From IMG/VR virus record IMGVR_UViG_3300027828_000007, positions 1 to 46,771 of that record: 46,771 nucleotides of DNA; one strand, given 5' to 3'. Position numbers and translations under genes: made by a program. Positions 2,743 through 44,613 of this stretch are shown here, piece after piece. The notes beneath the pieces were generated by a model. The model saw only the letters and a program-made list of their open reading frames with translations. It searched no databases and was not told where the DNA came from. Source of the DNA: a virus. Lineage: Duplodnaviria > Caudoviricetes. Position 1 is the stretch's first letter. The number at the start of each line of letters is the position of its first letter.

Positions 2743-2816
2743 GGGGCCAGACTAACTCCGGAGGGCGCGGTTGGCGTCCGAGCATACCAAGCACCGCTGC
2801 CGCTTTCTGGCCCACC
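2743..2816 (+). ncRNA. Candidate tRNA-like/C4-like antisense RNA 1
   Basis: 8-bp closing stem GGGCCAGA/TCTGGCCC followed by ACC; two inner hairpins; loop regions complementary to 2842-2849 and 2852-2859. Confidence 0.5.
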
Positions 2817-2865
2817 TCTGCGGAGGCCCATCAAGGAGCCAAGTGGTGCAACCAACCGCTTATCA

Positions 2866-24496: not shown

Positions 24497-25197
24497 TGGC
24501 TCTCGGTGTCACAAACCTTGTTGGCTTCGGTGCGAAGCGTGCAGCCGCAGCTGCTACGTCTGATTTCGCGTTCATCGGGGAAACAACAAACTCGGCTTCC
24601 GGCTATAGCGTCTCATTCCATGGGTCTGCGGCGGCGGGTGATGTGGCAATCGTGGCCGAGAGTTTCGACGGCACGGTGGCCCTGACAGGAACGACAGCGA
24701 CACCACCTACAGGGTGGTCAGTGTTTGACGACACTGTGACGGACACAATTGGTTTTCGCGGGGTTCGCGATCTTAACTCCGGGATTTACTACAAGGTTCT
24801 AACGTCCGGCGATATTTCGACAGGCAGCGTCAGCTCCCAAATCACGGGCGGCGCGGACACCAATCAGTTGATGGCATGTCAGATATGGCGGCCCGTTTCG
24901 ACGCCGAGCTTTTCAGATCAGGAAGTTGCAGCGGGTCTTACCGGCGCTGACGTATCCGTCACGGCATCAAGCGGGACACCGCCGACACTGGTTGTTGGCG
25001 CGGCTTGCGGGGCACAGTTTGACACGAATACATCCCCAGCGTTCACGCAAACAACGACAGTTGGCACAGGAACGAGCGGACTATCGCTCGGGGTGACGTA
25101 TTATGACGCATCTCCATCCAGTCAGACAGTTGATAGCCAGACGGCGGCAACAGATTCACAGACGTTTGTCGCCTACTCAAACCTGAGCTTCGCATGA
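24496..25197 (+). CDS. Putative tail tip/receptor-binding protein
   Basis: MALGVTNLVGFG start, Ser/Thr/Gly-rich beta domain (AAAGDVAIV, PPTGWS, YYKVLT). Confidence 0.55.
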   Translation: MALGVTNLVGFGAKRAAAAATSDFAFIGETTNSASGYSVSFHGSAAAGDVAIVAESFDGTVALTGTTATPPTGWSVFDDTVTDTIGFRGVRDLNSGIYYKVLTSGDISTGSVSSQITGGADTNQLMACQIWRPVSTPSFSDQEVAAGLTGADVSVTASSGTPPTLVVGAACGAQFDTNTSPAFTQTTTVGTGTSGLSLGVTYYDASPSSQTVDSQTAATDSQTFVAYSNLSFA

Positions 25198-25997
25198 CGC
25201 CCGGCATCAAATGGCTGGCGTCTTATCCCAAGAGTGGCAACACATGGGCGAGGCTGTTCCTTCTCAATTACCACATGGCACCGGACGAGCCGATACTTCC
25301 TGACGCGCTTGGGCAAATCCAGTTCTGCCCCGCAGACGATGCCGAATGGCTTATCAATAACGCCACCGGAATGTCACCAAAGGACATGCCCCCTCCTGCT
25401 CCCTTCTTCAGATTGAGAACCGCATTTCAGCAGCATTATCTTCTATGGTGCGCGTCGATTAAGCGCATACCGTATCTCAAGACCCATTCCCCAAACCTCG
25501 TAGCTGACCACCTGTTCCGCATGATTGATGAATCAATTACGGAGAAGGCTGTTTATTTCATCCGTGACCCGCGCGATGTGGCACCCTCATTAGCCGCGCA
25601 CACAGGGGCAGGACATGATGAGATTGTCGATAAGATGGCAAGCCCTTCCTATGCCGTGCAGCGCCCCATAGGCACTGTGAGTCCTATAGGGAACTGGTCC
25701 GAGCATGTGAAGTCATGGGAGGAAATCGCCACGGTCATCAAATATGAAGACCTCCCAAACGCCTTCGAAGTCATGCTTGAGGCTTTCGGACTAGAAAGAG
25801 ATGAGCGGTTCGACAAGGCCGTGAAGTTCACCGACCTCAAAACCCTATCGAAACTGGAAGACGAGCATGGATTCGGTGAGGGCTCCAATCACACAAAGTT
25901 CTTCGGCGGCACCACGCGCAAGCTGAACAAGCCCCAGAGAGAAAAGATTGAGGAAGCCCATGGTGATGTCATGCGGCGGTATGGGTATCTCACATGA
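25194..25997 (+). CDS. PAPS-dependent sulfotransferase
   Basis: 5'-PSB loop WLASYPKSGNTW, KTH, 3'-PB motif IRDPRDVAPS, W.EHVKSW, IKYEDL. Confidence 0.88.
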   Translation: MTPGIKWLASYPKSGNTWARLFLLNYHMAPDEPILPDALGQIQFCPADDAEWLINNATGMSPKDMPPPAPFFRLRTAFQQHYLLWCASIKRIPYLKTHSPNLVADHLFRMIDESITEKAVYFIRDPRDVAPSLAAHTGAGHDEIVDKMASPSYAVQRPIGTVSPIGNWSEHVKSWEEIATVIKYEDLPNAFEVMLEAFGLERDERFDKAVKFTDLKTLSKLEDEHGFGEGSNHTKFFGGTTRKLNKPQREKIEEAHGDVMRRYGYLT

Positions 25998-40219: not shown

Positions 40220-40554
40220 AACGGGTCATCATAGAGTCGCCTTTCGCTGGCCAAATTGAGCGCAATACAGAATACGCCCGCCGTTGCCTCAAAGATTCCC
40301 TTGATCGTGGCGAAGCGCCGTTAGCGTCTCACCTTCTCTATCCGCAAGTGCTGGATGAGAACGACCCCGCTCAACGCAGGCAGGGGATAGATGCGGGAAT
40401 GGCGTGGTGGTATCCGTGCCCCCCAAATCTCGCGTTCTATGTTGACTATGGGTTCAGCCCGGGAATGAAAAAGGCTTGGGACAAATCGTTAGACGGTGGA
40501 TGGTATCAAGAGCAGCGCACCATAGGCAAGAACCCCGGTGATGCGGATGACTGA
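40216..40554 (+). CDS. Nucleoside-deoxyribosyltransferase-fold small protein
   Basis: VIIESPFAG..N..YAR...GEAPLASHLLY...SPGM. Confidence 0.6.
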   Translation: MKRVIIESPFAGQIERNTEYARRCLKDSLDRGEAPLASHLLYPQVLDENDPAQRRQGIDAGMAWWYPCPPNLAFYVDYGFSPGMKKAWDKSLDGGWYQEQRTIGKNPGDADD

Positions 40555-41911
40555 CCCCGAGGAAGCCCGAGAAAGCCTATCCAACATCGAAGCCGAGCAG
40601 ATGGTTCTGGGCTGCCTGCTGATGAATAACGAGGCGTTCTATGGGGTGGATTCTATCCTGTCCCCCGATGATTTTTCCGAAGGGCTGCACCAGCGTATAT
40701 ACAATGTCATCACAAAGATGATCGAGAAGGGCGGGGCGGCAAGCCCCCTGACCCTCGGCAACTATTTCGATAAAGACCCTGCCATGCAGGAGATTGGTTC
40801 AGGCTATCTCTCGAACCTCGCGGCCAATTCCGTCCCCGCATCCATTGTGAAAGATCATGCGAATCTTGTTCGCCGCCTGAGTGTAAGGCGCGGGCTGCAC
40901 GATATGGGCACCGAGATTGTCGAGCAATCGCTTCACGACGATATAGACAACGACCCCGAAGCCCAGATCGAGGATATTCAAGCGTCTCTGGACGGGCTGT
41001 TGAGCAAGGACGTGAAGGAGGGCTCCAAATCCTTCGACAGAGCCTCACAGGACGCCCTGACACGCGCTGAAGAAGCCTTCAGGCGGAATGGCCCAAGCGG
41101 GCACCTGACGGGCCTCAGATGCCTTGACGCCCATATGGGAGGGTTCAACCCCACGGATATGATCGTGATCGCGGGTCGCCCCGGAATGGGTAAGACCGCA
41201 ATAGCCACAAATATATCCATAAATATGTCAAAAGAAGGCAAGTCCGGCCTGTTCTTTTCCATGGAAATGAGCGCGGACCAATTGGCCCAGCGCATCATGA
41301 GCGCGGAGACGGGCATCAGTGCCCAAGACGTGCAGCGCGGGAACATCAGCGAGAACCAATACAGGGCGATTAGAGACGCCCGTGAGAAGATAAAGAGCCT
41401 TCCTCTGGAGATTGACGAGCGCGGGGCATTGCGCCTCTCACAGCTCGCGGGAAAGGCCCGGAGGGTCAAGAGAACCAAGGGCCTGGATTATATCGTCGTC
41501 GATTATATGCAGTTAATGGGCAGTTCGGGGAAAACCCAGAACAACCGCACAAATGACGTGACTGAAATCACGGGTGGGCTCAAAGCATTGGCCAAGGAAT
41601 TGAATGTGCCTGTCATCGCCCTTTCCCAGCTTTCCAGAGCCGTAGAGCAGCGAGCGGTCAAGCGGCCCACGCTATCGGACCTCAGAGATTCAGGAAGCAT
41701 CGAGCAGGACGCGGACGTGATCCTGTTTCCTTACCGGGAAGAATACTACCTCCGCATGGAGGGTCTGACCGAAGACACCAGCGAGGCGCTGCGCGTTTGT
41801 GCTGGGACCGCTGACCTGATTCTGGCCAAGTGGCGACACGGGCCGACCGGGGATTTTGAACTCAGTTTCGACGCAAGCACCACGACATTCAGCGACCGGG
41901 GGCATCGGTGA
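40547..41911 (+). CDS. dnaB: Replicative DNA helicase
   Basis: AGRPGMGKT, FSMEMS, VVDYMQLM, ALSQLSR, DLRDSGSIEQDAD. Confidence 0.95.
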   Translation: MTDPEEARESLSNIEAEQMVLGCLLMNNEAFYGVDSILSPDDFSEGLHQRIYNVITKMIEKGGAASPLTLGNYFDKDPAMQEIGSGYLSNLAANSVPASIVKDHANLVRRLSVRRGLHDMGTEIVEQSLHDDIDNDPEAQIEDIQASLDGLLSKDVKEGSKSFDRASQDALTRAEEAFRRNGPSGHLTGLRCLDAHMGGFNPTDMIVIAGRPGMGKTAIATNISINMSKEGKSGLFFSMEMSADQLAQRIMSAETGISAQDVQRGNISENQYRAIRDAREKIKSLPLEIDERGALRLSQLAGKARRVKRTKGLDYIVVDYMQLMGSSGKTQNNRTNDVTEITGGLKALAKELNVPVIALSQLSRAVEQRAVKRPTLSDLRDSGSIEQDADVILFPYREEYYLRMEGLTEDTSEALRVCAGTADLILAKWRHGPTGDFELSFDASTTTFSDRGHR

Positions 41912-41917
41912 GTAATG

Positions 41918-41946
41918 TTGCCATTTTGTCCGACAGAGGATATTCT
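41918..41946 (+). promoter_or_regulatory. Sigma70-like promoter for ncRNA 2/initiator
   Basis: TTGCCA-N17-TATTCT; predicted start falls on GGGGCG at about 41952. Confidence 0.7.
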
Positions 41947-41951
41947 TTTAT

Positions 41952-42014
41952 GGGGCGCACAAAGCGCGGATTGATCCCCGCGTTGCGCTCGCTTCCGCAG
42001 GAGCGCCGCCCACC
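41952..42014 (+). ncRNA. Candidate tRNA-like/C4-like antisense RNA 2 (initiator leader)
   Basis: GGGCG/CGCCC followed by ACC; two 6-bp hairpins; loop regions antisense to 42023-42043 including the RBS. Confidence 0.55.
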
Positions 42015-42048
42015 TTCTTTCGCTGCGGGCAAACTGCGGGGATTTCCC

Positions 42049-42804
42049 ATGTGTTTCAATCTTGTCCACCAAGTCATTTACGGTGATCACAATCTCACCC
42101 AATCCGAAAAGCTGGTCCTGATTGTGCTTGCCGAGCACGCCAAGGAAGACCACGGGTGGGAGTGTTGGCCCACTGTTGAGCGGTTAATGCGTGCATCGTG
42201 CAGTAGCAGGCGGACCGTCCAGAGGGCGCTGCGGTCGCTTGAGGATATGGGGTACATCAGGATTGCCAAACATTCGACGGGGAGGCCGGGGGAGCCGACG
42301 ACCTACTGGGTAAATGCTGAATATGTCGCTAGGGGCGCCAGTGTGACGCCCGTAGAGGGGCGCCAGTGTGACGCGGAAGGGGCGTCAAATACGACACAGA
42401 CGGGCGCCAGTGTGACGCCCAAACCTGTAATAGAACCAGTAAGGGAACCTGTAACCGCGCGAACAGCCAAAAAAAGGGCTACGAGGATGCCCGATGATTT
42501 TCCTCTGAAGCTCGACCGAGATTGGGCCACTTCCAAAGGGCTTTCCGAGCATCAGGTCAATCGGGAGGTTGAGAAGTTCACGGAATACTGGGGCAACAAG
42601 ACGGGGCAGGGCTCAACGAAGCTCGATTGGTCAAAAACATGGAAGGTCTGGGTCAACAACGCCATTGACCGAGGATGGGTTGTGCTTTCGGGTGGTGAAC
42701 GACAGCTAACCGACATGGAACGCGAAGTATTGGAACGCCAGAAGAAACGGGAGGGTCCGTCTAACAGCGGACCCGTGTTTCTCGCGGCGGGAGGAATGAG
42801 ATGA
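42049..42804 (+). CDS. Replication initiator (N-terminal winged HTH)
   Basis: LTQSEKLVLIVLAEHA..CWPTVERL..SRRTVQRAL..LE; internal iterons; C-terminal F..YW...DW..TW..W. Confidence 0.85.
   Translation: MCFNLVHQVIYGDHNLTQSEKLVLIVLAEHAKEDHGWECWPTVERLMRASCSSRRTVQRALRSLEDMGYIRIAKHSTGRPGEPTTYWVNAEYVARGASVTPVEGRQCDAEGASNTTQTGASVTPKPVIEPVREPVTARTAKKRATRMPDDFPLKLDRDWATSKGLSEHQVNREVEKFTEYWGNKTGQGSTKLDWSKTWKVWVNNAIDRGWVVLSGGERQLTDMEREVLERQKKREGPSNSGPVFLAAGGMR
42333..42454 (+). repeat. Iterons and adjacent repeats (probable replication origin)
   Basis: GGGCGCCAGTGTGACGC at 42333, 42358 and 42402, degenerate copy at 42380; AACCWGTAA x3 with 12-bp period. Confidence 0.85.
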
Positions 42805-43667: not shown

Positions 43668-44228
43668 GTGAGGTACATTGTGGCCACGAACCGAGACTGC
43701 CAATACTGCGGCACGAGATTTCGCGTCGAATTGAACTCCAGACTGTTTTGCTCTGGCCGATGCCGTCAGCGGTATCACCGCGAGAACCGACTGAAGTGTT
43801 TTTACTGTGGGGAACTCGGAACCAGCCGGGATCACATCTTCGCCCACTCAGCGAGAATAAACGTAGGGCGGGGAACCCGGAACTTCGCCGGGCAGGAGAC
43901 GGTAAATTCCTGCGACGAGTGCAACAATATCATGGGGAACAGGCACCCGTACAGCATTTTGGATCGCGTGGCGTATTTAATCGAGAGGTTGGACGCCAGA
44001 TATCAACTTCAGGTTCAAGTGCCGGAATGGGACGAGGAGGAGTTGGAAGAATTGGGGCAGAACTTGCGCCGCATGATCGGGGCAAAAATCAAGCAGCGGC
44101 AGCGCGCACTGGAGCGCAGGTCACATGCCAAGATCGTTTACGACCGCATTAACAGGCTAACCCATAGCGAAGATGAGATCCCCGAAGATGAGCGAGATAA
44201 GAGCAATGCGTCACCCGCCCCTGAATGA
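43668..44228 (+). CDS. HNH endonuclease-like protein with N-terminal zinc finger
   Basis: CQYC..FCS..C; CFYCG..RDHI...SCDECN. Confidence 0.7.
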   Translation: MRYIVATNRDCQYCGTRFRVELNSRLFCSGRCRQRYHRENRLKCFYCGELGTSRDHIFAHSARINVGRGTRNFAGQETVNSCDECNNIMGNRHPYSILDRVAYLIERLDARYQLQVQVPEWDEEELEELGQNLRRMIGAKIKQRQRALERRSHAKIVYDRINRLTHSEDEIPEDERDKSNASPAPE

Positions 44229-44613
44229 ATTGATGGTGAAACTTAAGGACGCCCAGCGCGCCTATCTCAAGGCCCTTGGATCTCGGGATGACGTGGTTTC
44301 CGACATCATGGGCCACGGGTTTTCACGGGACGCGGTTTTATTCGCGCTGCAAACGGTGGAAGCCAATCCGCAAGATGAGTTTGCCAAGATGGTGCAAGCC
44401 AAGGAATTGATCGAGGCTGCGCCGGGTGGGGCGACGGTTGAGTTTGTTTCCAAGGTGGAGACGCCGTATCGCAAGGACCATGAGATGCAGGTCAAGGCAT
44501 ATCAGGCGGGAAGGGACGCAGCGAAGGGTGGGGAAAGGTGTCAGAGCCCCTACGAGCCCGGAATCCTCCACCGCAAGTGGGTAGCAGGGTGGAGAGACTC
44601 AAAAAAAGGATAG
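44206..44613 (+). CDS. Helical (GapR-like?) protein with C-terminal RMF-like domain
   Basis: AYQAGRDAAKGG..CQSPY....RKWVAGWRD resembles ribosome modulation factor. Confidence 0.6.
   Translation: MRHPPLNELMVKLKDAQRAYLKALGSRDDVVSDIMGHGFSRDAVLFALQTVEANPQDEFAKMVQAKELIEAAPGGATVEFVSKVETPYRKDHEMQVKAYQAGRDAAKGGERCQSPYEPGILHRKWVAGWRDSKKG

Follow-up and report, generated by a model that had tools for sequence, protein, structure and literature searches.

A non-coding three-way-junction leader upstream of a phage replication initiator gene and a possible role in dose sensing

The window, a 46,771-nucleotide stretch that constitutes a complete virus record with terminal repeats, contains between the dnaB gene (ending at 41911) and the replication initiator gene (ATG at 42049) a leader element, 41952-42012, which is real, non-coding and arranged as a three-way junction behind a conserved promoter. 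The leader may function as a dose-sensing off-switch in which a short copy devoid of the targets docks onto the mRNA by a kiss between P2 loops and covers the ribosome-binding site (RBS), so that initiator synthesis would fall with phage dose; we regard this proposal as evenly balanced. Its basis in sequence and covariation is the promoter, the three stems, a P3 loop matching two targets termed T1 and T2, a self-complementary P2 loop and the initiator gene located 3′. The first-pass annotation had described the region as a tRNA-like antisense RNA module belonging to one family with a second element, module 1, near position 2743. The analysis bears out a structured, non-coding leader that precedes an initiator and shows loop-target covariation, and does so in a wider group of phages, but it does not bear out the tRNA-likeness or the joint family with module 1.

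The window encodes portal, GP7 capsid, Rad52, SSB, GcrA, DnaB and HTH_36 initiator proteins together with two methyltransferases. The presence of the GcrA gene suggests an alphaproteobacterial host, and DNA of this phage is present in marine sediment runs. A gene with a sulfotransferase domain is placed in the tail region (25194-25997), and a separate gene at 44173-44613 has a weak match to ribosome modulation factor. The features discussed below are listed here, with L024 being the nearest relative that carries the element.

2743..2859, + strand: module 1, a separate candidate leader; loop-target pairs 2767-2774 with 2852-2859 and 2791-2798 with 2842-2849
40538..41911, + strand: DnaB helicase gene, upstream context
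41918..41946, + strand: sigma-70-type promoter TTGCCA-17-TATTCT; 9 of 12 matches, hexamers unchanged in L024
41953..42011, + strand: three-way junction from the fold, closing stem P1 pairing 41953-41957 with 42007-42011; P1 is 7 bp in L024
41963..41984, + strand: P2 hairpin, stem 41963-41969/41978-41984 with an 8-nt loop 41970-41977; a pair changed on both sides in L024
41985..42006, + strand: P3 hairpin, stem 41985-41990/42001-42006 with loop 41991-42000; in L024 the loop has changed in step with both targets
42012..42021, + strand: pyrimidine/U-rich tail, from the sequence; in 61 of 63 family loci the 10 nt following P1 contain 5-8 T
42023..42028, + strand: target T1, the proximal repeat and predicted decoy, complementary to the P3 loop
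42034..42043, + strand: target T2, overlapping the RBS; pairs with the P3 loop (42034-42039) and, in the phage of the window, also with the P2 arm (42036-42043)
42049..42804, + strand: replication initiator, 251 aa, HTH_36, O-like/primosomal; Pfam PF13730 (E 6e-19), PHROG 1032, 270 and 391

The promoter is composed of TTGCCA (41918-41923), a 17-nt spacer and TATTCT (41941-41946), as first annotated, and both hexamers are retained in L024 with 6 of the 17 spacer bases differing. A promoter scan gives 3 sites in 2 kb compared with 0.7 ± 0.9 in shuffled sequences, and transcription probably starts near 41952-41953. The 64-nt core folds at -30.0 kcal/mol (z -1.75) into the three stems originally proposed, and because 9 of 200 shuffles fold equally well the folding alone is weak evidence. 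The junction formed by these stems is three-way and not the cloverleaf that had been suggested. ARAGORN reports 0 genes, Rfam has no tRNA match at E≤10 and a four-way cloverleaf with a T-arm and a tRNA score is absent from the leader by ARAGORN, Rfam and the fold, and the supposed CCA-like ACC 3′ end is TAC in L024. In the Rfam search the leader has no gathering-level match and no C4, tRNA or int-alpA match at E≤10. The U-rich tail (42012-42021) is a candidate 3′ end of a short RNA and is not called as a terminator by the terminator scan.

The possibility that the initiator begins upstream and the region is coding, raised in the first-pass annotation as the result that would overturn it, was checked for GTG 41908 and for ATG 41950, the latter being where a gene caller places the initiator start. 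The GTG 41908 frame is open in the window, but its L024 counterpart does not share the frame of the start codon that follows, and no more than 6 of 70 family loci have an open frame across the leader; coding from either codon is rejected on these grounds. Initiator homologues identified by tblastn start at initiator residues 1-21. Within the initiator (42049-42804; P0002-P0005 compared) the N-terminal domain is swapped among close relatives, being of HTH_36, DUF1376 or phrog_26426 type, despite which the C-terminal tail is nearly identical, and three initiator alleles co-occur in sediment runs. A promoter-like site on the minus strand (42269-42242) is located within the initiator gene and is directed back toward the leader.

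Two complementarities between the leader and the region 3′ of it are found as first annotated: ATCCCCGC (41974-41981) is the complement of GCGGGGAT (42036-42043), and CCGCAG (41995-42000) is the complement of CTGCGG (42023-42028). CTGCGG is present twice, at 42023 and at 42034 with the second copy overlapping the RBS, and the P3 loop can therefore pair with both targets. The earlier scheme of two loops for two targets missed this second copy. Both of its pairings are present in the window (p = 0.0015 for the P2 arm against its target and p = 0.005 for the P3 loop against the two sites, each from 2000 shuffles of the downstream 45 nt), but the pairing of loop 1 with the RBS, held to be a conserved feature, is significant in 0 of the 21 viral matches passing the structural filter described below, and half of the 8-nt loop 1 complement (41978-41981) is buried in the P2 stem. 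The P3 loop is predicted to be a target-specific antisense loop. The P2 loop of the window, ATTGATCC, holds a self-complementary GATC at 41973-41976 and is predicted to be a kissing loop, with the 4-bp kiss being weak as a bare duplex (-3.4 kcal/mol).

Among close relatives, the nearest one carrying the module (L024/L005, DnaB 92%) shows P1 lengthened from 5 to 7 bp, a G-C to A-U change on both sides of the P2 stem and a P3 loop altered together with both targets (8+8 nt), and its P2 arm pairs at 7 of 8 positions with the RBS site. The next gene in L024 is a 74-codon ORF with a stop that overlaps the start of a different initiator. In L023/L006 (DnaB 95%) a methyltransferase gene is found in place of the module. 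Judged from these comparisons, the module is non-coding, under selection for pairing and optional.

More distant relatives were collected with the top of P2 as the search motif, which gave 113 matches in viral stretches and a further 120 fetched of about 470, amounting to 180 distinct sequences. A filter using structure only is passed by 21 viral matches and by 17 of 116 distinct cellular-genome matches, and significant pairing (p<0.05) of the P3 loop with two sites farther 3′ is seen in 11 of the 21 viral matches compared with 1 of the 17 cellular ones. Covariation across the relatives links the P3 loop with both downstream repeats, the second of which is at the RBS. In the 3-kb surroundings of 17 elements, namely those of the window, L024 and 15 members picked by hand, an initiator is among the first three genes in 11 (gene 1 in 6), one has a weak primase match and 5 have none; the junction words of int-alpA, an Rfam motif discussed below, are absent in 10 of the 17 including the window, and 6 of those 10 precede initiators. 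Matches of the P2 pattern in GTDB genomes (120 of about 290) were rejected as chance-like. One same-build module, in L389 (G009, 1490-1640), is situated between terminase-side genes and the portal operon and not at an initiator. Lone hairpins with a ATTGATCC loop and without the three-way junction occur in L272, L283, L286, L340, L373, L070, L307, L348 and L363, and such hairpins of other phages (L272 etc.) precede terminator-like or RBS regions.

A junction pattern built from words common to six members, with the loops left unspecified, matches an estimated 1,700 or so viral stretches, from which 120 were fetched and 116 are distinct, with all counts from this sample uncorrected for phylogeny. 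In this sample (six seeds) an initiator lies at most 150 nt away in 84 of the 116 loci, farther away in 1 and is not found in 31, of which 7 had only 300 nt of flank. Both targets pair with the P3 loop over at least 5 nt in 60 of the 116 loci compared with 6.7% of 3,913 cross-locus pairs. In most cases 2-9 nt separate the end of the second target from the start codon. The P2 loop contains a Watson-Crick palindrome of at least 4 nt (4-6-mers) in 105 of 115 cases. When only distinct P2 loops are counted, 30 of 38 are palindromic compared with a mean of 13.1 and a maximum of 24 in shuffles, 0 of 5,000 having as many, and for the control P3 loops the count is 6 of 69. The core of the palindrome changes on both sides (GATC, TAGCTA, TCATGA, TAATTA, TGCA and CGCG), and since its halves are too close together to pair within one strand this covariation argues for pairing between two copies. 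ATTGATCC is the second commonest P2 loop class with 14 of the 116 loci, which were chosen without reference to the loop. All four helices covary in alignments fitted to the model, and G-U pairs are tolerated in the stems. Pairing of an invariant P2 loop with the 16S 3′ tail was considered and is ruled out by the appearance of other loop classes.

The same element is recovered from a protein-selected set consisting of the best 80 DUF1376 loci, which are the closest relatives of a module-bearing initiator and not independent of descent. Model R2 matches 72 of the 80, with 70 directly upstream of the gene. A palindrome is present in 46 of the 63 loci that could be parsed, the other 17 having P2 loops without a 4-nt palindrome (TTAGCG in 10 and AGTTGCTA in 5), and the T1 duplex is stronger than that of T2 in 52 of the 63. 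Across 401 genomes of one class the junction pattern has matches in 21, no more than the reversed control; one of the 21 is the unpublished genome G314, and its sequence supports none of the claims made here. A blastn search of modules 1 and 2, L362 and L421 against cultured phages returned short chance matches only and an initiator scan of viral contigs gave nothing confirmed. In L413 (917-1094, - strand) a group I intron is located directly 3′ of a junction-pattern element, and second, weaker family copies are present 3′ of the initiator in the same phage at L663:2734-2792, L647:2434-2490 and L600:1979-2037.

This large initiator-leader family is an extension of Rfam int-alpA (RF02996, typed 'sRNA'), an orphan motif. 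The int-alpA model scores 16 of 20 tested junction-pattern loci, 8 of them over its 35.8-bit cut-off. As in the window, int-alpA is composed of a three-way junction and a U-rich tail, and in its consensus the P3 loop could base-pair with the 3′ tail of the same RNA. It is found in 13 of 151 cellular genomes as 18 distinct copies, whose P2 loops comprise 7 with a palindrome of at least 4 nt, 7 with GACG and 4 with neither, and both targets pair over at least 5 nt in 11 of the 18 compared with 23% of cross pairs. Integrase genes precede the cellular copies (all 8 long upstream ORFs that were scanned encode integrases), whereas the initiator-leader family is situated before replication initiators, in phages where no integrase was detected. 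The first-pass annotation had put the element forward as an undescribed system, and this is now limited by the int-alpA scores of the core family and by three unnamed structured-RNA candidates (DNAVirus_187, _230 and _4653) listed by Fremin et al. (2023) in aquatic phages, where they precede DUF1376/YdaU genes by no more than 25 bp (PMC10690425). By their table entries these candidates may belong to the family, and the main-text passages on them give no mechanism (PMC10690425). In the literature searched, which did not extend to the Weinberg 2017 supplement, neither kissing through a palindromic loop nor a pair of targets is described for int-alpA or for the leaders of phage initiators. Another Rfam motif, DUF2800 RNA (RF02960), has a first hairpin with a TGATCA-type loop like the P2 of the window, but it is larger, of other architecture and without a score in the window. 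L071 carries a DUF2800 RNA with the P2 loop of the window and a gut-2 RNA before it, and the DUF2800 consensus loop is also palindromic.

The copy in the window is a divergent look-alike of the large family and is probably homologous to it. The int-alpA model (cut-off 35.8 bits) has no match at E≤10 in 41850-42150, and the junction words CUAG, GAAAAG and CCUG are absent from the window and L024. Present in the window are P1, P2 and P3 in a three-way junction followed by the U-rich tail, and also a P3 loop complementary to downstream sites with a self-complementary P2 loop, these last traits being drawn from the present analysis rather than from the int-alpA description. Models R1 and R2 match the window at 26.1 and 29.7 bits, values that are circular, since possession of this loop guided the choice of seeds and the window is itself part of R2. 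Model R3, built from protein-selected loci only, has no match to the element at 41952 or to L024 at E≤3 and matches the intermediates L052, L132 and L323 weakly (16.3, 14.0 and 13.4 bits); L024 is likewise missed by the int-alpA model at E≤3. The window copy carries a P2 loop class native to the family, ATTGATCC, and is positioned before the initiator at 42049. The link to the family is indirect, being drawn from the shared P2 top, architecture, two-target rule and gene context.

In the proposed mechanism the junction would fold during transcription, and in the mRNA its own P3 loop would be caught by T1, leaving T2 open for translation of the initiator (ON); T1 is expected to take the loop because it is transcribed first and is the stronger duplex in most parsed loci. 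Some transcripts would end at the U-rich tail by termination or processing and would keep a free P3 loop. IsrK offers a precedent for a short form that acts upon its own mRNA (PMC4825925). These short copies would accumulate with the dose of phage DNA and kiss the mRNA, at which point two loops would be available for two targets and T2 would be covered whichever loop takes which site (OFF). The outcome would be negative feedback on initiator synthesis and, possibly, exclusion of phages that share both P2 class and P3 code.

A partner RNA is perhaps unnecessary, because in folds of the full leader an RBS-closed cis form is as stable as the junction form in the window (-43.0 compared with -42.1) and in L024. 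The leader could in that case be a kinetic switch acting in cis only, with the junction forming first, the RBS briefly open and a refold to the RBS-closed form following, or with attenuation at the U-tail, and with the P2 palindrome in a side role. The RBS-closed form is the minimum-energy full leader in both phages and arises once T1 and T2 are transcribed, and the U-rich tail is found across the family; the self-complementarity of P2 through many different cores and the retention of two targets are left unexplained, and we consider a purely cis-acting switch rather unlikely.

C4 antisense RNA is processed by RNase P, and the first-pass scheme amounts to such a C4/CI-type processed RNA with two different loops on two targets, which is improbable for this leader. 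The leader is C4/CI-like in logic and is not a C4 member. The likeness extends from the two pairings present in the window to the Rfam C4 structure, likewise a three-way junction whose terminal letters are similar, and to gene order, since in P1 the C4, a2 and b2 sequences are followed by the small gene icd and in L024 the 74-codon ORF is coupled to the initiator. As in the window, replication genes are located downstream in P1 (repL 3′ of c4-icd-ant) and in P4, where CI is a small RNA excised from the leader of the very operon that it represses and lies on the same strand as its targets (PMC4825925). The C4 model (RF01695, cut-off 45 bits) nevertheless has no score in the window while the controls P4 and P1 reach 74.9 and 68.8 bits, and isrK (RF01394) and c4-a1b1 (RF03163) have no match. 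The closing stem of the C4 model is 17 bp ending in CCACC compared with 5 bp in the window and 7 bp in L024, where the ACC end is lost. Two different segments pairing with two different downstream sites, the C4 arrangement, are seen in the window and in 0 of 21 relatives; the leader of the window places one loop on two repeats, and its self-complementary loop has no counterpart in the C4 consensus. An upstream IsrK/seqA leader with a1 and b1 targets is absent, the longest upstream complements being 7 nt and inside dnaB.

Little credence is given to the opposite polarity, in which a single RNA keeps its own RBS closed in cis and dimerization with a trans copy frees it. The stable cis OFF fold of the window is compatible with this, and in Gifsy-1 a short terminated form of IsrK targets, in trans, the longer form of its own transcript (PMC4825925). 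IsrK is an activator and has no sequence or model match to the window, a trans copy adds a loop complementary to T2 and should close the RBS, and T1 outpairs T2 in 52 of 63 loci. Least probable is that the P2 palindromes are a DNA or protein site (methylase, restriction or repressor) or that a counter-transcript from the minus-strand site at 42269-42242 regulates, as enzymes commonly recognize such cores as GATC and AGCT, two methyltransferases are encoded and the minus-strand promoter-like site is present, but the stems accept G-U pairs, the core varies freely if self-complementary at a fixed place in the P2 loop and the minus-strand site is in the initiator segment that is swapped among relatives.

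Extended from the window to the family, the dose-sensing reading becomes a widespread class of self-counting phage leaders in which a palindromic kissing loop dimerizes the RNA and a variable second loop shuts the initiator RBS, a generalization that is possible and, in our assessment, somewhat doubtful. With about 1,700 viral stretches matched by a single narrow pattern, this is a large family associated with initiators, and the comparative evidence favours homodimerization through the palindromic loop as a putative concentration sensor. Plasmid replication control by RNA uses a counter-transcript. In P4, replication is controlled by a processed antisense RNA, according to the passages on CI (PMC4825925). 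Were the class to exist, incompatibility groups would be set by P2 class together with P3 code, the orphan int-alpA motif would gain a mechanism, common aquatic phages without integrase or CI would have a protein-free replication dose control and many natural loop/target pairs with built-in specificity codes would be available. Domains of integrase, resolvase, S24 repressor and ParA (PF00589, PF00239, PF00717 and PF13614) are detected in 0 of 13 near-complete module phages with the controls detected, a count made without a module-free comparison set and so not an enrichment. This absence of integrase and repressor domains appears to argue against classical prophage immunity, and dose control in infection or a carrier state therefore fits better.

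An analogy to the predicted kissing loop is provided by the retroviral dimerization loops of HIV-1 DIS and MoMuLV/MoMuSV, among which are palindromic apical loops, often with 5′ purines, and the GACG loops of MoMuLV/MoMuSV; in MoMuSV a GACG loop forms a kissing homodimer of two base pairs (PMC7357161). The retroviral GACG loop is identical to 7 of the 18 cellular int-alpA P2 loops; the retroviral kiss serves genome packaging, unlike the role proposed for the leader.

Module 1 is a separate candidate with a relation to module 2, the leader described here, that is unproven. The shared ends that had suggested kinship are present, but models R1-R3 have no match to module 1, the family P2 class is absent from it and a scan for homologues gave 52 pattern matches in which only an identical copy in L001/L543 was recovered and no diverged homologue. 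Its loop-target pairs are in C4-like order, and a 30-codon ORF overlaps the start of the next gene, to which it is coupled. In the surrounding region (2743-2966) a downstream hairpin pairs both targets with each other and an 8-nt palindrome is located at about 2756-2763. In the related phage L002 (5100-5750; terminase 62%) a tRNA-Arg(TCT) and several other stem-closed elements with a repeated spacer between them precede the terminase region, a place that module 1 occupies in the window.
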